Source: an uncultured Planctomycetaceae bacterium
GTDB lineage: Bacteria; Planctomycetota; Planctomycetia; Planctomycetales; Planctomycetaceae
Direction of reading: 5' to 3'
Length of the DNA stretch: 64,000 nt
NCBI GenBank assembly: GCA_963815195.1
Contig: CAWFGE010000023.1
Coordinates: 32,001-96,000 of the forward strand
Each line of letters begins with the position of its first letter. Position 1 is the first letter of the stretch. The notes below the pieces were generated by a model. That model was not told the origin of the DNA. It saw only the letters and a program-made list of their open reading frames with translations, and ran no database searches. The translations under genes were made by a program, and so were the position numbers. Positions 48,073 through 58,878 of the stretch are shown piece after piece.

Positions 48073-49098
48073 TCAGCTGATATATGCCGTCGGCCACTGC
48101 CGGGAACGCAACCCTAATGCGAGATACTCTGGATTCGGACGCGCATCGATCACGTTCGGCAATGCGATATGTTCCGGAAGCCGCCCTCGGAATTCGTCCA
48201 AACCCATGTCAAGCTGCAAAACGACAAGCTGCGAAGCCTTGTCGGGATTGACCACAATCTTATAACTCGACTGCACCCCCAAAAGCCCATTGTCGTAGGC
48301 TCCGTGGTGCAACCGGCACAGAGCTAGGCCATTGGTGACATCGTCGGTGGATTGAGGGTCGGACACCGGCACGATATGCGCCGCATCGACAAGCTTCAAA
48401 GCCGTTCCGCAGACCGCACAGCAATACCGGTAGGCCCTGAGCACCTTCGGCCGGAACTGCGCTTCCCGATACGCCCGCATTGTTTGAACCAGGTCGTATC
48501 GGCGCGCGGCTTGGATTTCATCTTCCGACTCATCCAAAAAGTTCCGTTCGTCGTCGTAGGCGGCGTCGGCCAGATCGGCGACGGCGGATGAATCCTCTTC
48601 GGAATTATGCAGCGGCAATCCCCGCTCGACATACCACAGGAGAGAATCCGGCTGAACCGCGACGACCACTTCTCGGCCCATTTCCGTGGGACGGAGATAC
48701 GTTGCGATTCCAGCGTGGAAGGCGGTTTCAAGCGTTTGCCGATTGACTTGAAGACTGTTTGACCGGCTTCGAAACCTCGTGTGCCGGCGGGGATCCCAAA
48801 AGACATACACGCCATGCTCGGCATTCCAGCCGCCCAACAACGTCCGCACGCCGGGCTGAAGCGGAATGCCTCTCAAACCGGTGGCCTGAATCCGCATTTC
48901 ATTCTCGGGCCGATTGCGTCCGCCCGGCGTAACAGCCCACAGGAAGAGGATACAATCCGTGGTCCCTTCGGAAGTGATGACTCGCAATCGTGCCGGTCGT
49001 TCCGGATCCGTTTCGCGTTCCCGGATGACCGTGGCGCTGGATCGTTCCAACGTCGCGACAAACTCATCGACCAATCGAGAGAAAGGAATCCCCGGCAT
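48073..49098 (-). CDS. HNH endonuclease with N-terminal putative DNA-recognition domain
   Basis: CAVCG...DAAHIVP...DDVTNGLALCRLHHGAYD; 12 bp downstream of the methyltransferase. Confidence 0.88.
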   Translation of the reverse strand: MPGIPFSRLVDEFVATLERSSATVIRERETDPERPARLRVITSEGTTDCILFLWAVTPGGRNRPENEMRIQATGLRGIPLQPGVRTLLGGWNAEHGVYVFWDPRRHTRFRSRSNSLQVNRQTLETAFHAGIATYLRPTEMGREVVVAVQPDSLLWYVERGLPLHNSEEDSSAVADLADAAYDDERNFLDESEDEIQAARRYDLVQTMRAYREAQFRPKVLRAYRYCCAVCGTALKLVDAAHIVPVSDPQSTDDVTNGLALCRLHHGAYDNGLLGVQSSYKIVVNPDKASQLVVLQLDMGLDEFRGRLPEHIALPNVIDARPNPEYLALGLRSRQWPTAYIS

Positions 49099-49110
49099 TC
49101 CATTGCACCT

Positions 49111-50118
49111 TTAGTCCTTGGAAGGTTTGCGTTTTCCCGTCGAATGGCCTTGTTTCGCGGACAACTCATTGCCCGGTGCATCATCGAAAAGCGGTCCTGT
49201 TTCAAACCGAATCATGGAGCCTGCGACGTAGTTTGGTTCGAGTTCGGAAGCGATCCAACGACGATTGGTTTGATTGCAAACCGATCCCGTTACGTTGCTG
49301 CCGGCAAATGGGTCGATCACCAAATCCCCCGGTTTCGTGAGAAAGTCGATAAAAAACTTAACCAGTTGTTCGGGATAGCGCGCGGGATGGGGCTTTATGC
49401 CGCGCTTCCTGCATTCCCGGAGATAGGTGCTGTTGGATTCCGTGTTCGCGATCTGAATCAAATTCGGGGGAATCGCACCGCCGTTATCCTTTTGAAACTT
49501 TGTCGAGATGTCATGTCCGGACGGACGCTTCTTGGCTTTATACCCGTTTTTGATGAGGTTCTTCATGCTGTCGCTATATGGCTGAAGCACGCGGCGGTTG
49601 TCAGCGTTTGGGTATTCCGTCTTGCCGAACCACCAAACCATATTGACCGCATCCTTAACACGAATCCGGCGGACCGTCACCCACTCGGCGGGCGTCGGCA
49701 AACGGGCGGGGTTATACCAATAAAATTCCTGCGCCAGATGAAATTCTTTCGCCAAACGAACGGCAAGCTCAAAGTGATAGATGCTTCGGACCGGCGCTCC
49801 GGGAACCCAAGCCCCGCCGATGTCGAGTACGAAGCTCCCCTCCGCCTTCAAGATGCGCTTGATTTCAAGACAAAAAGGCATGAACCATTCCAGATATTTA
49901 TCCAGAGGCTCGTTGCCGTACTCTTTCTTGCGCGTTAAGGCGAAAGGCGGGGACGTGATGACAAGATCGACGCTTTCACTCGGAAGCGTAGTCAGCAATT
50001 CCAGAGCGTCCATTTCAAACATCGCCCCCAAGGGAGTGCTATAGGCCGGGGTGAGATCTGAGATTCTATAGGTTTTGGTCCAACCTAGGTCTTTATCAAA
50101 TCCGCCGCGGGTGAGCAT
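49111..50118 (-). CDS. Beta-class N4-cytosine DNA methyltransferase, M.PvuII-like
   Basis: TSPPFAL-RKKEYGN, RIRVKDAVN, RPSGHDI, KDNGG-IPPNL, HPAR, DPFAGS; these match my recollection of the M.PvuII sequence. Confidence 0.92.
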   Translation of the reverse strand: MLTRGGFDKDLGWTKTYRISDLTPAYSTPLGAMFEMDALELLTTLPSESVDLVITSPPFALTRKKEYGNEPLDKYLEWFMPFCLEIKRILKAEGSFVLDIGGAWVPGAPVRSIYHFELAVRLAKEFHLAQEFYWYNPARLPTPAEWVTVRRIRVKDAVNMVWWFGKTEYPNADNRRVLQPYSDSMKNLIKNGYKAKKRPSGHDISTKFQKDNGGAIPPNLIQIANTESNSTYLRECRKRGIKPHPARYPEQLVKFFIDFLTKPGDLVIDPFAGSNVTGSVCNQTNRRWIASELEPNYVAGSMIRFETGPLFDDAPGNELSAKQGHSTGKRKPSKD

Positions 50119-51172
50119 CGTGCATCATCCAAAAAGTGTTGAGTTCACTCCAACCCGGAATGTGGAAACGTCTCGCTGGTGAGTATGACCGTTTCCGAAA
50201 TCAAAATCAAATGGTCTGATGCAGATGGACCACTTTCAGACCGCTAATCCCGCGCGTTTTTGTTTCGCATCCATTGTTCGGGGAAGTCGGCGGGTTCGGA
50301 GCCGGACTTTAACCTGAGGTTCGCGCCCATGTTGCGTTTGTGGCTGAAGGGGACGCGGTTGGCGCTGGCTTCTTCCACGATCTTGTGGAGGTCCGCCCGC
50401 ATTTGGCGTGCGTTGCTGCTCCTTGGGATCGAAGTTTTCGTAGGGCAGGCAGGACGGCAATGTCAATTATGAACTTATGTTCCGTGCTACCGCACATCGA
50501 TCGATTCGTGTTATTTCCCTTTCTCGACGCATCGGATCGAAAACGCATTCAACGAACCTGCAGCAGCATAGATCGCGAGACGAATACGGCGCGAAAGGAT
50601 TGGTGAGGATTTCCACCGCACGGCGTGGCAATCGGTGAAAACGGCGGGGGCGACCTATTGATCTTGATTCCAATGCCCGACCATCCCGACACGCTGCAAT
50701 ACACGGCATATTGGTGGGATCATGAAATCGGCGAGATCGAACCAGTTGCCGATGACTTCCGCGACCTGCCGAAATCGTCAGGGGCATGTACCTCGTAGGC
50801 TCCGCTCTGCGAAGCATCTCGATGTCTGAAATCGTTCGGCCTCCATTTCAGAACTCGTTCCTTCGCCAAGCAAAAGTTGTTGTCCCGCCAAGAATTGACG
50901 GATGAATTCCAAGCCAGGCGGCGGGATGGCGCGTGCTTTAAGCCCGCCGCGGGATCGAGTCCCAGAAGAGTGGGTGCGCCGGTAAGCGCGTTCGATGCGC
51001 GCCGCTCAATGCTTGGGTGATTGGGCGTGTGGACCCGTGTGCGACCGTGGGCGGGTGTATCGATGGGAAAAATCGCCTTTTTCGCCAGCGCATCGACTTG
51101 GGCTAGGATTTCGTCTCGCGAAACGGGTAGTATGGGGAAACTGGAAAAAATGTAGGCTGGGTCTCGCAACTT

Positions 51173-54100
51173 ATGAACGTTGATGAACTGCTGAGGATTC
51201 TTGGTGAGCGCCGTATCACCTTATGGGTGGATGGGAAGGCCTTGCACTTTCGCGGGGAAGCGGGTGTTCTCGATTCCGAGTTGCTGTCAGAACTACGCCG
51301 GAATAAAAAAGACCTCATCGCCAAACTGCTGGAAGAACAGAATTCGCCCCCAACCAAGTCAATTGAGGGCGAATACTGTTCGCTGTCGCTGGGGCAGCAG
51401 GCGTTGTATTACTTGCACGTCGCGCATCCGCAGAGTGCCGCTTACAACGTCGCCTCCGCCGCACGGATTTGTTCGCCAATCGAACTGGATGCGATGCGAG
51501 AATCCTTCCGGGCGCTGATTGCCCGGCACGACGCGTTGCGGACCACGTTCGAAATCCGCCACGGCCAGCCTTGGGCCCACGTCCATCCGCACGGCGAGTT
51601 GGATTTCGAGCAGCGAATGGTGCCCGAGGGGAATGAAGACGAACTCGAAGCCGAAATCCGCCGGGAGTATCAGCGGCCGTTCGATCTCGCACGCGGTCCG
51701 CTATTGCGGGTTCGGGTTTGGACCCAGTCGCCCGCGAAGCATGTGTTTTTGATGACGCTGCATCACATCATCTTTGATGCCTGGTCGTTGTGGCTGATTC
51801 AAGACGAATTCCGGCAACTCTATCGGCAGTACACGGGCGGTTCACCGGCGCTATTTCCCACATTGGACCAGCGGTATCAAACGTTTGCCGAGGACCAGAA
51901 CGCACTGCGAACCAGCGAACAAGGCGAGAAGCTGTGGACATATTGGCGGGAACGCCTGGCCGGGGAACTGAGCCCCACGGATTTGCGGTTCGATCGGCCG
52001 CGGCGGATCGGCGCGGAACTCCAAGGTGACACGCACCACTTTCGGATTTCCAAAGACCTCTCCTCCCGGCTCCGCGCGTTGGGCCGATCGCAAGGGGCAA
52101 CGCCGTTCGTGGTGCTGCTGGCGATTTTCAAAGTCTTACTGTCGCGGTACACGGGCCAGACGGATCAAATTGTGGGAACGAGCACTTGGGGGCGGTCGAA
52201 TCCCAAATACCGCCGGGTCGTGGGATATTTCGTCAACACCGTCCCGATTCGGAGTGACACTTCGGGCGATCCCACGTTTTCCCAATTTCTGGGGCACATT
52301 AAAACGCGGACATTGGAGGCCCTCGAGCATCAGGATTTTCCGTTTCCGCTGTTGGTGGACCGTTTGAATCCCCGCCGGGAATCCGGGCAGTCGCCGATCT
52401 GCAACGTGATGTTCGGCGTGCAAAAGCCCCAGCAGTTCAGCGAAGTCATGCGGTTGTTCGACGAAGACGCCGAGGCCATCGATTGGGGCGGTTTGGAGGT
52501 GCATCCTTTCCAACTGAACCAGCAAGAAGGTCAATTTGATCTGACGATGGACCTGTTTGAGACGACCGATTCGTTCTGGGGTGCGCTGAAATACGATCCG
52601 GAGCTTTTCGATCGCGAGACGGTGGAACGCATGGCCCGGCATTTTGTGCATTTGGCCGAGGGAATTGCCCAAGACCCCAGCCGGGCGATTACGGATTATG
52701 ATCTTTCGCCGGCGGAAGAACGGTTCGCCATCCAGGCGTTTTGCGAATCCGGTCCGCGAGTCGCGGTGTCCAACGAGCGAGTGCACCGCCTGTTCGAGCA
52801 GCAAGCCGCCCGCTCGCCCCGCCAAATCGCCCTCGTCTGTGGCCGGCTCGCATTGACGTACGAGGAAGTCAATCACCGGGCGAATCAGGCTGCCTGCTTG
52901 CTGCGCGAAGAAAGCGTAAAACAAGGCACGCTCGTCGCCTGCCGGTTGGAACGCGGTCTGGATTCGGCCGTGTGGCTGCTCGCGATCTGGAAGGCCGGCG
53001 GCGTGTATCTCCCCTTGGATGCCGCGGATCCCCACGCCCGCTGCGCACAAATCCTGGAAAACTCCCGAGCGGAACTGCTCATCACCCAATCATCGCTGGA
53101 CTGGAACAGCGGCCAAAATTCATCGGCCGGTTCGCATCGGACGCTGCTTTTGGACGAACTCTCGGACCGGCTCAGTCAATACGCAGGCGACGAATTTGAC
53201 GGAGGAAATCTCCCCGCGAAGTTTGGCGTATATCCTGCACACCTCCGGTTCCACCGGCACCCCGAAGGGGGTTTGCGTTTCGCATGCGGCCTTGGCGGAG
53301 CATCTGCTTTCGATCCGCGAGGTCTATCAGCTCAAACCGGAAGACCGGGTGCTGCACTTCCATAATTTTACGTTCGACCCCTCGCTGGAAGAGTTGCTCG
53401 CTCCCTGGAGCGTGGGAGCAACGGTGCTGCTCAGGGGCGAGGACCTGTGGACGCCGGACACGTTTTGGGAAATCGTGCAAGATCAAAACGTGACGGTCGT
53501 GGATTTGCCGCCCGCGTATTTTCGGCAGTGCAATGAAGTGCTGGAACGAACCGGTGGAATTCCGGCGTCGCTTCGGCTGTTGATTATCGGCGGGGATGTT
53601 TTTCCCGCCGAGATGCTGAGCACATGGAAGGATTCCGGCGTGCGGATTCTCAATGCTTACGGGCCGACCGAAGCGGTGATCACGGCCACCGTCTATGATG
53701 CGACAGAGCATGACGTCGCGGTTCACCCTCGTGCGCCCATCGGCCGGCCCAAGCGGGGCCTGCGGGCGTATGTGCTCGACTCGCGGGGCCGGCCTTCACC
53801 GGTGGGCGTGCCGGGCGAACTCTATCTCGCCGGCCCGATGCTCGCCGACGGCTATTGGCGGGATCCGGAATTGACAGCCCGAAAGTTTCCCGCAAATCCC
53901 TTTGCCGAGGGCGGAATGTACCGCACCGGCGATCGCGCGGCCTGGCGGGCGGATGGAATGTTGGAGTTCCTCGGCCGGCGGGATCGGCAATTCAAAATCC
54001 ACGGCTTCCGCGTAGAAACGGCAGAAGTTGAGAGTCTCTTGAACCGCTCTCCGGGCGTTCGGCAGTCGTGTGTTCTCCCGCGGCGCGATTCCCAAGACGA

Positions 54101-54551
54101 ACCGTATCTCGTGGCCTGGATCGAAAGTGATGCCGACGCGGCAACTTTCGAGGCGGACGTCCGAACCGCTCTCAAACAACGCCTGCCGCAGTACATGCTG
54201 CCCCGGTATTTCGTCGTGCTGCCGCGATTGCCGGTCAAGGCCTCCGGGAAGATTGATGAGCACGCCTTGCCGGAACCGGAATCCTCTCCGCGTGTGCAGG
54301 CCGAATACATTGCCCCGCAATCACCCTGCGAGAAAAAGCTCGCGCGAATTTGGTCGGAGGTTTTGGAAGTGGAGGCCGTCGGAATCCATGATAACTTTTT
54401 CGATCTCGGCGGCGGATCTTTGACCAGTCTGCGAGTTGTCGCCTTAGCCCGGGACGAAGGCTTACTCGTCCAAGGCCTGCCGATGGGGCCCGAACTCTTG
54501 TTTGAATATCCCACCATCGCCGAACTCGCCGCCCTCTTGGACCCGTACTGA
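51173..54551 (+). CDS. Single-module NRPS (TubC_N docking-C-A-PCP, no TE), frameshift at ~53190
   Basis: Docking-like N-terminus; HHIIFDAWS; TSGSTGTPKG, YGPTE, YRTGD, SGKID; FFDLGGGSL. Confidence 0.93.
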
Positions 54552-54572
54552 AATTTCCACGCTGAAGCACAA

Positions 54573-54754
54573 TAAAATCCGAAATCCGAATCTCGAAATC
54601 CGAAACAAATCCAAATGTCCAAAACTCCAAGTCGCAAAACTTTGAGCGACAAAGCACGAAAATTGGGAACGAATCCGCACAGTTTCGTTTGAGACATTCG
54701 GATTTGAGATTTTGAATTTGTTTCGGATTTTCGGATTTCGATATTCGAATTTTA
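54573..54754. repeat. Inverted arrays of degenerate heptamer repeats (AAATCCG-like)
   Basis: AAATCCG AAATCCG AATCTCG AAATCCG AAACAAAT.. on the left and the reverse-complement array on the right. Confidence 0.85.
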
Positions 54755-54790
54755 ATCCTGCAGAATGCCACTCGATCAAGGCAAACAATC

Positions 54791-56791
54791 ATGCGCCATT
54801 CCAAATCCTACATTGCCGGCCTCGGCGTCTATCTTCCTCCCAAACAGGTGAGCACCGAGGAAATCATCAAAGGCTGTCGGAATCCGGTGCGCATTCCTTT
54901 GGAGCGGCTGACCGGGATCCGCAGCCGGCACATGGCCGGCGAGGATGAGTTCGCCATTGATCTTGCGGCCAAAGCCGTCGAGGATTGCCTGGACCGCACG
55001 GACACCGCCCCCGAAGAGTTCGACATTTTGATCTGCTGCAACATCTCGCGCTATGACGGGCCGCGGCTCGTCTCTTATGAACCCTCGACCGCTGCCGTCT
55101 TGAAAAAGCGCTTCGGCCTGACGAATGCCGTGGCGATGGACCTTTCGAATGCCTGCGCCGGCCTGTGGACCGGAGTGTATCTGGTCGATGCTTTGATTCG
55201 GACCGGAGCCATCCGCCGGGGTCTGGTGGTCAGCGGGGAATACATCAGCTATCTGGCGACGACGGCCCAGAAGGAGATCGTCGACTATCTCGATCCGCAA
55301 ATCGCTTCGCTCACGCTGGGGGATGCGGGCGTGGCCGTCGAGTTGCGGTTGTCGCCGTCGCCCGCGATCGGGTTTCATGACATCGAGCTTTACACGCTCG
55401 CGCAATACTCCCGCGACTGCATCGCCAAGCCCAGCGATAAAACCCACGGCGGCGCCGCGATGTATACGGACGCCGTCAAAGTCTCCTCGGCCGTCGTGCC
55501 CCATGCGGCGAAGCACGCGGAACAAATCCTCCGCAAGAACGGGCAGTCGGTCGAGCAGTTTCAGCACATCATTCCGCACCAGACATCCCGATTGACGATG
55601 AACGATGCGATCAAATCGGTGGCCGGCGAATTTCCGATCGACCTCGAGCACCGGCTCATTAACAATCTGACCCTTCGCGGGAACACCGCGACGACCAGCC
55701 ATTTTCTCGCGCTCCGGGACACAATGCTCGAAGGGCGGATTCAAGCGGGCGATGAGGTGCTGTTCCTGATTTCGGGTTCGGGGCAGACCACCGGCACGGC
55801 ACTCTACACGTGCGACGATCTGCCCGATCGCCTTCGCTCGAAAACTCCCCGCACGGGCGAAACCGCTTCGCCCAGCGTGCCCGGGGAAACGTTGGCCGTT
55901 CCCCTGCAATTCGAGTCCTTCGCCCAGGTCGCCCGGAATGAAATCGAGCCGAATGACACGCTGACGATGCTGGAGCACGTCGCCGAAACCTGCCTCGAAA
56001 AATCCCGGTACGCCAAGGAAGAGATGGAAGTTTTGATTTCCGTGGGGGTTTATCGCAGCGAGTTTTTGACCGAGCCTGCCATCGCGGCACTCCTCGCAGG
56101 CGATCTCAAGATGAACGACCGCCGCGAGCCCGACGAGGCGCACAAAACTTTCGCGTTTGATCTCTTAAACGGGTCGCTGGGGTTTTTGAACGCGTGCTAT
56201 CTCGCCGCCGAGCTTTCGCGGGCCGGCGGTCTCGAACGGGCGATGGTCGTCGCCTCGGAAATCGAAAACAACAAAGAGGTCATGCCCGGCCATTTGCTGG
56301 GCTTGCGGGAGATGGCGTCGGCGGCGATTTTGCACGAATCCGACGACGGCGAAACCGGCTTTCTCGCCTTTTCGTTCGATCAGTATCCCGAACATGCCGA
56401 CGCCCTGAGGGTGACCGGCACCTGGAGCGAACAGGGAAAACCGCATCTCATCCGGTCGGCGAGCGATGACCGCTATCTTTGGTACGTGGAAGACATCGAG
56501 AAGAGCGTTTCCCGGTTCCTCTGCGAACAGGGCGTGAGCCGGGACGAAATCCGGTTTCTCATCCCGCCGCAGATTTCCCCTGCGTTCGTGCGGGCCGTCA
56601 GCCAGGAACTTGGCATGCCCCATGCGGAGACGATCGACGTGTCCTTCGACGGGCAGGACCTCGCAACGTCCTCAACGCCCGCCGCCATGCAGGCCGTTGT
56701 GGAAAACAATCTCGCCCAGAAAGGCGAACTGGGGCTGATCATCAACATCGCGTCCGGTGGCCAGGTCGGATGCGCGCTGTACCAGTTTTAG
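54791..56791 (+). CDS. Tandem di-domain 3-oxoacyl-ACP synthase III (FabH/OleA-like)
   Basis: Domain 1: SNACAG, IIPHQ, RGNTA (Cys-His-Asn); domain 2: LNGSLG, IPPQ, DLATSS (triad lost). Confidence 0.88.
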   Translation: MRHSKSYIAGLGVYLPPKQVSTEEIIKGCRNPVRIPLERLTGIRSRHMAGEDEFAIDLAAKAVEDCLDRTDTAPEEFDILICCNISRYDGPRLVSYEPSTAAVLKKRFGLTNAVAMDLSNACAGLWTGVYLVDALIRTGAIRRGLVVSGEYISYLATTAQKEIVDYLDPQIASLTLGDAGVAVELRLSPSPAIGFHDIELYTLAQYSRDCIAKPSDKTHGGAAMYTDAVKVSSAVVPHAAKHAEQILRKNGQSVEQFQHIIPHQTSRLTMNDAIKSVAGEFPIDLEHRLINNLTLRGNTATTSHFLALRDTMLEGRIQAGDEVLFLISGSGQTTGTALYTCDDLPDRLRSKTPRTGETASPSVPGETLAVPLQFESFAQVARNEIEPNDTLTMLEHVAETCLEKSRYAKEEMEVLISVGVYRSEFLTEPAIAALLAGDLKMNDRREPDEAHKTFAFDLLNGSLGFLNACYLAAELSRAGGLERAMVVASEIENNKEVMPGHLLGLREMASAAILHESDDGETGFLAFSFDQYPEHADALRVTGTWSEQGKPHLIRSASDDRYLWYVEDIEKSVSRFLCEQGVSRDEIRFLIPPQISPAFVRAVSQELGMPHAETIDVSFDGQDLATSSTPAAMQAVVENNLAQKGELGLIINIASGGQVGCALYQF

Positions 56792-56797
56792 CCGAAC

Positions 56798-57754
56798 TCA
56801 GTCGTGTCGGCCCACGAGAATTCGCAATTGCTCCTCCAGTTGGCGGGCGGTTCTCTTGGTATACCGGCGCGGACTGATGATCTTTTTCAATCGGTCCGTC
56901 AAGAGGATCGGCGTCCCTTGGGCGAGCCGGAGCTGCGCAAACGCCCCCTCCCTGGGCAAGCCGAGAAAGAACTTGTCCGCATCGACATCCAGCACCCGGT
57001 CCTCTTGATCGTTTGGCGGCAAGGATTGAATCGGCTGATCGACCAATTCGTAGTCGGGATCGAACAGCCAAACCAACGTATGCAGCTCGCCCGTCTTGGG
57101 GGAAACGAGGATCGCATACCGGGTCATCATTTTTTTGTGTTGGCCGTCGATCAGCAGGATGGCATCGCTGTCAAAGACCAGCATTGTTGGCGTGCGGACA
57201 ATCTGCAGAAAGCCGGTTCGAAAATCCGTCTCGCATTGCGAAAGCACCTGGCGGGCGATGATGTCGAGATCGGCCCCAAGTTTTTTCTGAGTGGCGGAAG
57301 TTATGATTGTGTTCTTCCCGTCGATCTCCGTTCCAATGCCGATCGCCACTTGCTCCAGAGAGTATTCTTCGATTGCTCCCGTCCGATGCCGCTCCACGTC
57401 GGCCAGGCAGTTGACGGTATACACCGCGGCATAATACAGGACGGATCGGGGGACCTCTTTCACATTGCCGCTGCCAATTCGCGGATGGGCCGCATACACC
57501 AGATGAGACCAGCCTTTGGGAGGGGTCTTGCCGACGACCGTTCCGGGGGGAATCCAATCCAAAGGCTTTTCCTCAAGAACCACGCGTCCCGCTTCCGGAG
57601 GCGGGGAAACCGGAGGTTTCTTTGGGGGAGGCGGTTCCGCGACACGGCCCCAGAAGAACCACGACGCCAACAAGACCGGCAATAACGCCGCGAGGATCGT
57701 CAGCGGTCGAAAGGCGCGGGCACGTTTTTTCGTCTCGAACACAGGTTCAGGCAT
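56798..57754 (-). CDS. Hypothetical membrane-anchored protein
   Basis: 318-aa ORF with N-terminal TM helix and Pro-rich linker. Confidence 0.65.
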   Translation of the reverse strand: MPEPVFETKKRARAFRPLTILAALLPVLLASWFFWGRVAEPPPPKKPPVSPPPEAGRVVLEEKPLDWIPPGTVVGKTPPKGWSHLVYAAHPRIGSGNVKEVPRSVLYYAAVYTVNCLADVERHRTGAIEEYSLEQVAIGIGTEIDGKNTIITSATQKKLGADLDIIARQVLSQCETDFRTGFLQIVRTPTMLVFDSDAILLIDGQHKKMMTRYAILVSPKTGELHTLVWLFDPDYELVDQPIQSLPPNDQEDRVLDVDADKFFLGLPREGAFAQLRLAQGTPILLTDRLKKIISPRRYTKRTARQLEEQLRILVGRHD

Positions 57755-57873: not shown

Positions 57874-58878
57874 TTACAGCCATTGATGCTCAATATACCA
57901 GTCATATGTCTGACGTAGTTGCGTTTCGAGAGTCGCTTTGGAAGCGGCCTCGAGTTCCCGAGCGGCTCGTTCCGCCCGGCAGACCCAGGAACCCGCCCGG
58001 GCTTCCCGGATTTTGTCGAGGTTCAAAAATGTGGGCCGGCCCGTGATGCGTCCCCAGGCTTCCCACACGCCGGCCGCCATCCAGCATAGCGCCGACGGCA
58101 AAACCACGTTTCGCACCGATGCTCTCCCGAAGAACGGTCCCGACAACTCCGCCAGCTTGGCGAATGTCACCGGCTGAGGATGGGCCAGATAATAGATGCC
58201 TTGGTTCATAGGGTCGTCGCACGTTTTGATGGGTTTTCCCCTCTTCATGGCCGCCAGCATGCCGTCGATTAAATCGTGAACTTCCAAGAATGAGTAACGA
58301 GGCCTCACAGAGATCGCACAGACGTTAAGACCGCGTTTTATCGATTGAAAGAACAACAACAAATTACGATCCCCCGGACCGAAGACGCAAGGCGGCCGAA
58401 GAATGGTGATCGGCATCTGTGGAGAAATCTCTCTCAAGTAATCCTCCGCTTCCAGCTTCGTCCGTCCATAGTAGGAAACCGGCCGGCAGACATCCTGTTC
58501 CGTGACGCCTCCCTCCGAACTCGGCCCGGCTGCCGCGAGCGACGAGACATGGACGAGCTTTGGAGGGTTCGGCAGGTCGAGAACCGCATCCGCAAGGGTT
58601 TTCACTCCCCCGACATTGACCGACCGATAATACTTCAACGAAAAAGCCCCCGCGGCGGCCGCGAGATGGAAAATGCCATCCACCCCCCGGACGGCGGATT
58701 TCATCGCAACCGGATCGCGAATGTCGCCTTCCACGACTTCAACCGACTTGACGATCGAGTCAGGCAGACGCGAGGCACGTCGGACCAAGGCGACGGTTTC
58801 AATGCCCAGGTCCAACAGGGCAGGAACCAGCGATTTTCCGATGAATCCGGAAGCCCCGGTGACGAGCACGCGATTCAT
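57874..58878 (-). CDS. NAD-dependent epimerase/dehydratase (extended SDR)
   Basis: TGASGFIG, HLAA, HVSS, YGRTK, VFGPGD. Confidence 0.92.
   Translation of the reverse strand: MNRVLVTGASGFIGKSLVPALLDLGIETVALVRRASRLPDSIVKSVEVVEGDIRDPVAMKSAVRGVDGIFHLAAAAGAFSLKYYRSVNVGGVKTLADAVLDLPNPPKLVHVSSLAAAGPSSEGGVTEQDVCRPVSYYGRTKLEAEDYLREISPQMPITILRPPCVFGPGDRNLLLFFQSIKRGLNVCAISVRPRYSFLEVHDLIDGMLAAMKRGKPIKTCDDPMNQGIYYLAHPQPVTFAKLAELSGPFFGRASVRNVVLPSALCWMAAGVWEAWGRITGRPTFLNLDKIREARAGSWVCRAERAARELEAASKATLETQLRQTYDWYIEHQWL

Follow-up and report, generated by a model that had tools for sequence, protein, structure and literature searches.

A fused LstA-LstB-like KAS III di-domain as the candidate release unit of an apparently split PKS-NRPS line in a planctomycete

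Product release by assembly lines that lack a thioesterase is a standing gap in the annotation of polyketide synthases (PKSs) and nonribosomal peptide synthetases (NRPSs). A condensing domain stands in place of the terminal thioesterase in TAS1 (condensation-adenylation-peptidyl carrier protein-ketosynthase, C-A-PCP-KS; tenuazonic acid) and in the Dictyostelium Steely hybrids, being a type I KS in the former and a type III PKS in the latter; neither is an LstAB-type pseudo-heterodimer. Among β-ketoacyl synthase III (KAS III) enzymes, the glutamate of OleA acts across the dimer, and the active subunit of PqsBC has a Cys-His dyad without the Asn. OleA, NocG and PpyS share a Glu-Cys-His-Asn set for non-decarboxylative condensation (PMC9486936), the KAS III homologues CorB/MxnB and the FabH-like tetronate synthases (RK-682) end assembly lines by chain joining (PMC12304814), and in the lipstatin pair LstA-LstB residues C128, H271 and N305 of LstA and E60 of LstB are each required for activity or complex formation, with E60A abolishing activity (PMC12141560). 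The window analysed here, a stretch of 64,000 nucleotides from an uncultured Planctomycetaceae bacterium (assembly GCA_963815195.1, contig CAWFGE010000023.1, positions 32,001–96,000, forward strand), carries a single-module NRPS followed by a KAS III di-domain. This di-domain is, by alignment and tree, a fused homologue of the LstA-LstB heterodimer, fills the terminal position of its line, and is very likely the release unit. For the overall reading, in which non-decarboxylative Claisen condensation with a second acyl chain would release an N-acyl-aminoacyl chain, to be finished by a linked reductase as a two-tailed amide lipid, we estimate a probability of roughly 50%.

The main parts of the locus are the following.

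51173..54551, + strand: single-module NRPS, TubC_N-C-A-PCP by Pfam, about 1125 residues if the extra base below is an error
51179..51328, + strand: TubC_N docking domain (Pfam), predicted acceptor of the W-x-E-G-x-[LI] tail of a PKS on contig C10
53191..53191, + strand: one extra base, probably an assembly error, which splits the A domain into two frames
54791..55825, + strand: KAS III half 1, LstA-like, with Glu97, Cys122, His263 and Asn298
55880..56791, + strand: KAS III half 2, LstB-like, without the Cys, His and Asn, with an invariant Glu428-Pro429

The docking-C-A-PCP monomodule and the di-domain behind it had been named by a first-pass annotation made from the letters alone, and both are confirmed by Pfam domains and by the two halves of a single 666-residue open reading frame (54791–56791). 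The absence of a thioesterase, also part of that annotation, extends to the whole genome (8.87 Mb, 94.6% complete), in which none scores above the Pfam cut-off and the only condensation domain is that of the window; the window's contig has no PF00109 KS.

Both halves of the di-domain adopt the FabH fold in the predicted structure (pLDDT 92.9, pTM 0.94), for which the best solved chain reaches a TMq coverage of only 0.45. Searching plasmids by tblastn gives a lipstatin-type pair at E 1e-69, and 14 records carry the split, two-protein version. The two Streptomyces records examined are lipstatin-type, with KAS III, hypothetical protein, acyl-CoA ligase, epimerase-type reductase, NRPS and formyltransferase genes. 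On a Rhodococcus plasmid (NZ_AP023173.1, L102) lipstatin genes are absent, and the split LstA/LstB-like pair has a trehalose phosphatase and a wax ester/triacylglycerol synthase nearby. Half 1 is 37% identical to the LstA-like protein and half 2 is 32% identical to the LstB-like protein over 139 residues. The first protein of the lipstatin-type pair (L101) has C128, H271 and N305, on which Cys122, His263 and Asn298 align, and the second has E60, on which Glu428 aligns; both Glu-Pro motifs of the di-domain fall on the OleA glutamate.

Invariant in all 231 full-length sequences from the best 240 matches listed, and in all 116 representatives at 50% identity out of 150 listed, are Cys122, His263, Asn298 and Glu428. 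Position 97 of half 1 varies, with Glu in 111 and Asp in 5 of the 116, and the nucleophile, His and Asn positions of half 2 are degenerate, the nucleophile site being occupied by Ala, Gly, Ser, Pro and others. As Glu428 is invariant in the half without a triad while Glu97 varies in the half that has one, the conservation pattern is that expected for one composite active site whose base would be supplied by the dead half. A tree (quick only, with one junk row of 56 residues, and with lipstatin-type homologues rather than the S. toxytricini proteins as references) sets all first halves and LstA-like proteins apart from all second halves and LstB-like proteins, with support of 100 for the split and 93 for half 1 with the LstA-like proteins. 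This tree does not favour an origin of the two halves by recent duplication within a single KAS III.

In single-domain families the di-domain falls short. Its top sequence and fold matches are FabH, with a score of 167.2 bits against a cut-off of 292.1 for TIGR00747 and with a Glu in each half, Glu428 being invariant; for OleA (NF006720) it reaches 168.6 of 285 bits and is two-domain rather than single-domain. The PqsC match is at E 5e-11 only and Asn298 is invariant, which argues against the PqsBC type. That the KAS III acts in condensation or release, as the first-pass annotation held, is supported by the LstAB homology and the terminal position; the models that it named, PqsBC and DpsC/CerJ, give way to LstAB and OleA, with their Glu-assisted non-decarboxylative Claisen chemistry.

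The line to which the NRPS and KAS III genes belong is, with high probability, a split FAAL-PKS-PKS-NRPS-KAS line, of which they form the tail. Its head is on contig C10 of the same genome (310319–323242) and reads FAAL-ACP-KS-AT-DH-MT-ER-KR-ACP, then KS-AT-DH-ACP with a docking tail, with the acyltransferase (AT) degenerate in both modules. Three planctomycete genomes (L002–L004) have two PKS genes directly followed by the corresponding NRPS and KAS genes, and in the reverse search the best matches of the C10 proteins in G302, G303 and G304 are the PKSs directly upstream of NRPS-KAS. Head and tail are both well within their contigs, and no contig end accounts for the split. They are likewise on separate contigs in G307, a genome of the same genus, and in two others of that genus, G305 (94% complete) and G306 (90%), the head, NRPS, KAS and reductase queries are all without a match; head and tail are present or absent together in 4/4 same-genus genomes, with G301 and G307 counted once owing to their identical coordinates. 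The last PKS ends in W-x-E-G-x-[LI] in 7/7 aligned sequences, that of C10 included. Such tails we take to be docking partners of TubC_N domains, and with PF18563 scoring above its cut-off on the NRPS, a β-hairpin docking pair is present at sequence level. The minimal stand-alone locus of the first-pass annotation is thereby rejected, as the head exists on C10 and is contiguous with the tail in relatives; a ‘minimal cluster’ seen at the level of a window can turn out to be one half of a line that functions in trans. A starter-making role for the KAS III, as in lipstatin formation, is unlikely, given the FAAL loading module and fusions that are always C-terminal.

Beside and between the two main genes lie three further features.

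57874..58878, − strand: extended short-chain dehydrogenase/reductase (SDR) of epimerase/3-β-HSD type, candidate ketoreductase
56798..57754, − strand: 318-residue protein of no known family, with homologues in six related loci, the window included
54565..54760, no strand: AT-rich (39% GC) inverted-repeat element between the NRPS and KAS genes, present in about 93 genomic copies and no part of the pathway

The SDR adjoins the cluster in 5/5 planctomycete genomes examined. In G307 its orthologue (53%) follows directly on the PKS head; G304 has it downstream, and in G302 and G303 it lies upstream of the head in divergent orientation. These placements assign it to the system. The last PKS module (PKS2) lacks a ketoreductase (KR) domain in 5/5 planctomycete copies examined. 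The 318-residue neighbour has no usable match in the ESM Atlas. The inverted-repeat element sits exactly at the PCP/KAS boundary, which is fused in other lineages; as relatives with separate NRPS and KAS genes need no such element, it probably arrived after the split. Upstream of the NRPS are a DNA methyltransferase and MTaX1-HNH nuclease cassette (48073–50118, − strand; 55% GC against 60% for the genome) and an SMI1/KNR4-like fragment (50607–50795), which together occupy the place of the PKS head in relatives; L001 has a transposase-like reading frame there. A second lipid cluster, at 395568–412386 of contig C13 (L009, L010), comprises iterative PKS pieces and an α/β hydrolase, and is flanked by paralogues of proteins that relatives encode alongside NRPS-KAS, namely two unknown proteins and an ABC ATPase/permease. 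These shared proteins may form a common lipid export or chaperone module.

The NRPS is composed of TubC_N (residues 3–52), Condensation (residues 70–517), AMP-binding (over two frames), AMP-binding_C and PP-binding domains, with the HHxxxD motif intact at residue 197 and the GGGS serine of the PCP kept. In run X1, base 53191 is missing from a contig of 266 nt, at a depth of about 2.6, that is otherwise identical to the window, a same-genus orthologue reads in a single frame through the site, and removal of the base gives 1125 residues, to be set against 1127–1148 in orthologues. On these grounds the extra base is probably an assembly error, the evidence being good and not independent (one contig, from a run that may be the source sample), and the possibility of a genuine frameshift and a pseudogene, raised in the first-pass annotation, recedes. 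Its adenylation code, DPEDIGAITK, is reproduced on recomputation, and so is the expectation of a basic substrate (Lys, Arg or Orn): 8/10 positions equal those of ApnA A1 (DVEDIGAIEK), which is Arg-only in Table 2 of PMC5311044, a table in which close codes also take Lys or Tyr. The exact code was not found in the literature searched. The A domain of the window probably loads arginine.

The family is sparse in Planctomycetota; a single-protein search at E 1e-60 finds it in 1/300 other genomes of a random phylum sample, and 2/60 relatives have a match. At 50% identity its members fall into at least 116 sequence clusters. Among longer proteins there are 409 matches, and 118 of the best 120 span both KAS halves; the long matches are nearly all C-A-PCP-KAS-KAS proteins of about 1800 residues from Ktedonobacteria, mycobacteria, planctomycetes and metagenomes, and among the matches are the cultured, named carriers Ktedonosporobacter, Thermosporothrix, Rosistilla, Pirellulimonas and Mycobacterium, in which the chemistry of the di-domain is testable now. 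The di-domain is fused to a larger protein in 45/116 representatives, always C-terminally, and 42 of these have a carrier motif within about 170 residues upstream. From 249 metagenome loci 80 were kept, and in the 58 with at least 900 nt upstream the KAS gene is preceded by a carrier motif (46), an A domain (3 more), a divergent operon of FAAL, luciferase-like monooxygenase (LLM), PKS and in some cases NRPS genes (8), or nothing (1), so that thiotemplate genes adjoin it in 57/58, a count whose independence is overstated by the relatedness of the loci.

Upstream modules vary, from FAAL-ACP alone (L029) to KR and DH with or without an embedded monooxygenase (L052, L073, L076), and in L023, L041, L088 and L092 a PKS module stands directly before the KAS with no NRPS between. 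In L088 (9773–11986) the di-domain has its own N-terminal docking-like extension and follows directly on KS-AT-KR-ACP. In L028, L032, L052, L081 and L084 the PKS module that precedes NRPS-KAS has the luciferase-like monooxygenase inserted in its DH region, an arrangement that could give a 2-hydroxy acyl chain. The A-domain codes (n = 155, redundant) are 93 Ser-type, 27 Gly-type, 8 of the window type, 5 Asn/Asp-type and 22 other, labels that we assign on presumption; among 36 representatives at 50% identity, 13 are Gly-type and 5 Ser-type. Neighbours in the 80 loci include classical SDRs (22), extended SDRs (6), P450s (16), GT28 glycosyltransferases (9), phosphopantetheinyl transferases (28) and stand-alone thioesterases (8), and further a CDP-alcohol phosphotransferase, MmpL and a LolCE-like permease. 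Gly-type clusters L073, L076, L077 and L082 have a P450 and a phosphatidylinositol-phosphate-synthase-like gene beside the KAS, and L073 also an MmpL exporter.

In the favoured mechanism, a fatty acid would be loaded by the FAAL and extended twice by the PKSs, one unit being methyl-branched and fully reduced, and the C domain would amidate this acyl chain with arginine. The N-acyl-arginyl group would then pass from the PCP to Cys122, and Glu428 of the Cys-less half would complete the single active site and deprotonate C2 of a second acyl thioester, which would attack the Cys122-bound group in a non-decarboxylative Claisen condensation, as in LstAB and OleA. This step would replace a thioesterase and release a 2-alkyl-3-oxo-4-acylamino acid, a branched β-keto acid, which the SDR would reduce to the 3-hydroxy acid; alternatively, decarboxylation to an aminoketone would precede reduction to an amino alcohol. 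The end product is predicted to be an amide lipid with two tails and an arginine head group. Intermolecular fusion to another acyl chain is somewhat favoured over the other outcomes, as a varying preceding module would be tolerated by a general chain-fusion unit and not by a β-ketoamide cyclase, and the lipid head-group and export genes beside other subtypes (GT28 in 9/80, CDP-alcohol phosphotransferase, MmpL) count towards it.

Several observations weigh against this mechanism. The cluster has no gene for the second acyl substrate. Reductase genes are present in 28/80 loci (26/56 with at least 1.2 kb downstream), the P450 subtypes being mostly without one, and the KAS lacks an adjoining thiotemplate gene in L074 and in G314 (a 12.7-kb contig); the relatedness of the loci weakens their counts. 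The window SDR is 31% identical to an LstD-like protein and scores 72–75 of 580 bits for NF042422/NF042423 (OleD/LstD), far below the cut-off, and is by sequence of the same extended-SDR kind as those enzymes, not a member. Both head ATs are degenerate, the first being intact in G302 and G303 and lost alike in this genome and G307, so that malonyl loading would need an AT in trans, for which one stand-alone AT was found. In the C10 head (L013) and that of G307 (contig C20, L109) the first AT has lost its active site and about 130 residues, with the rest under purifying selection. This shared loss is possibly a transition from cis-AT to trans-AT.

The alternative that survives best, though unlikely, is Dieckmann release, likened to the terminal KS of fungal TAS1 or to the FabH-like tetronate synthases, in which the KAS III would close a β-ketoacyl-Arg-S-PCP (with Cys as relay and Glu428 as base) to a 3-acyl tetramic acid. 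The KR-less PKS2 of this clade makes a β-ketoamide and its direct closure possible, the di-domain is terminal in a genome without a thioesterase above the cut-off, and chain-terminating FabH-like enzymes make tetronates (PMC12304814). Most other members, however, have KR and DH domains or FAAL-ACP only before the NRPS, or no NRPS directly before the KAS, and yet keep the same invariant residues; moreover, the nearest characterised relative joins two separate chains, and the keto group could be reduced in trans by the conserved SDR.

Decarboxylative extension is improbable. Here the Cys-His-Asn half would add malonyl to the N-acyl amino acid, and the product would cyclise to an N-acyl tetramate, for which reutericyclin is the comparison, or lose CO2 to give a methyl ketone. 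The FabH-type triad is complete, the top matches are FabH, and enoyl-forming KR and DH modules precede many members; but in the alignments FabH has no Glu at this position, the invariant Glu of the Cys-less half would be left without explanation, and OleA, NocG, PpyS and LstA keep Cys-His-Asn and are nonetheless non-decarboxylative (PMC9486936, Table 1; PMC12141560).

Equally a minority reading, and slightly less credible, is recent decay in this genome, with a genuine frameshift, a separated head and lost AT domains. The first C10 head gene has two frameshifts relative to an intact orthologue of 3254 residues, in addition to the one in the window, the ATs are lost here and in G307, and a restriction-modification cassette stands where relatives have the head. 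Set against these are the X1 contig without the extra base, frameshifts that fall at different places in other assemblies with G302 and G303 intact, catalytic motifs that are all intact, and a dN/dS of 0.12–0.22 between this genome and G307 in all ten head and tail segments (by simple counting, with synonymous sites near saturation). Of the decayed tail of a larger known cluster, the refuting case in the first-pass annotation, the tail of a larger cluster thus stands, while decay does not, and no description of that cluster was found in the literature searched. The least plausible alternative is acyl transfer of the CerJ/DpsC/ChlB3 type, in which an amine or a hydroxyl group would accept the acyl-amino acid and an amide or ester would result. 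KAS III acyltransferases exist, ChlB3 is a weak PDB match (E 5e-7) and glycosyltransferases lie near some members; but the LstAB pair is far closer than any transferase, and the full condensing triad and Glu are kept.

In line with the first-pass view of an undescribed pathway, no description of an LstAB-type fusion ending a PKS-NRPS line was found in the literature searched, in which subscription natural-product journals are thinly covered. As PMC12141560 refers to the LstAB paper for ‘naturally occurring fusion chimeras’, LstA-LstB fusions as such were probably already noted there, and NRPS-fused forms might be mentioned. The di-domain is thus of a known kind, an LstA-LstB homologue, and what is new here is such a pair as a possibly new mode of terminating PKS/NRPS lines. 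If this is correct, a C–C bond-forming release mode would be added to NRPS/PKS logic, with a tool for branched or two-tailed lipids. More tentatively, and doubtful in its full extent, the fused di-domain may be an unrecognised, widespread NRPS/PKS terminator that gives two-tailed amide membrane lipids by coupling an N-acyl amino acid with another fatty chain, and with which Ser-loading members make (glycosyl)ceramide-like lipids without serine palmitoyltransferase, the window making an arginine-headed cationic or zwitterionic analogue. The same chemistry followed by decarboxylation would give Ser-loading members a 3-keto-ceramide skeleton, and their minimal clusters consist of FAAL-ACP and C-A-PCP-KAS-KAS with only an SDR and GT28 added; lactone or tetramate closure are alternatives. 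Such a route could be assigned to groups such as Ktedonobacteria and mycobacteria, and would mean that the scaffold arose independently in bacteria from which it is not known. As a reading of the whole family it is weakened by the Ser-type being just 5/36 representatives against 13/36 for the Gly-type.

Compared with known systems, the locus differs from CorB/MxnB and the tetronate synthases, which are single-domain and act on β-ketoacyl polyketides and not on aminoacyl-PCP (the CorB match is at E 6e-7). With OleA, NocG and PpyS it shares the catalytic set and its spacing, Glu97 and Cys122 being 25 residues apart as are E100 and C125 of NocG, which also uses carrier-bound substrates; those enzymes, however, are homodimeric, stand-alone and join two fatty chains, and the genome carries its own OleA elsewhere. 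Ceramide synthesis proceeds by serine palmitoyltransferase, an N-acyltransferase and a ketoreductase. The skeleton predicted for Ser-loading relatives is equal (N-acyl, 3-keto and then 3-hydroxy long-chain base), and an SDR and glycosyl- or phosphotransferases lie alongside; unlike the ceramide route, there is no pyridoxal phosphate enzyme, the amide would be made first and the C–C bond last, on a carrier protein, the SDR scores 161 of 400 bits, below the KdsR cut-off, and Arg rather than Ser is the substrate predicted for the window copy. Membership of a lipstatin or olefin cluster (lstABCDEF, oleACD) does not hold, with the KAS last and no LstC/OleC-type ligase or formyltransferase seen beside the planctomycete clusters by clustering of reading frames and in listings, and a β-lactone product is rejected for want of LstC/OleC. 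Closest remains the LstA-LstB pair of Streptomyces, with its two KAS III units, one with Cys-His-Asn and the other with the essential Glu (E60, equivalent to Glu428); its system, too, includes a reductase and an NRPS. In the window, by contrast, the pair is fused in one chain, has an N-acyl amino acid as its predicted electrophile and stands last, behind a carrier protein, whereas LstAB acts first, on acyl-CoAs.

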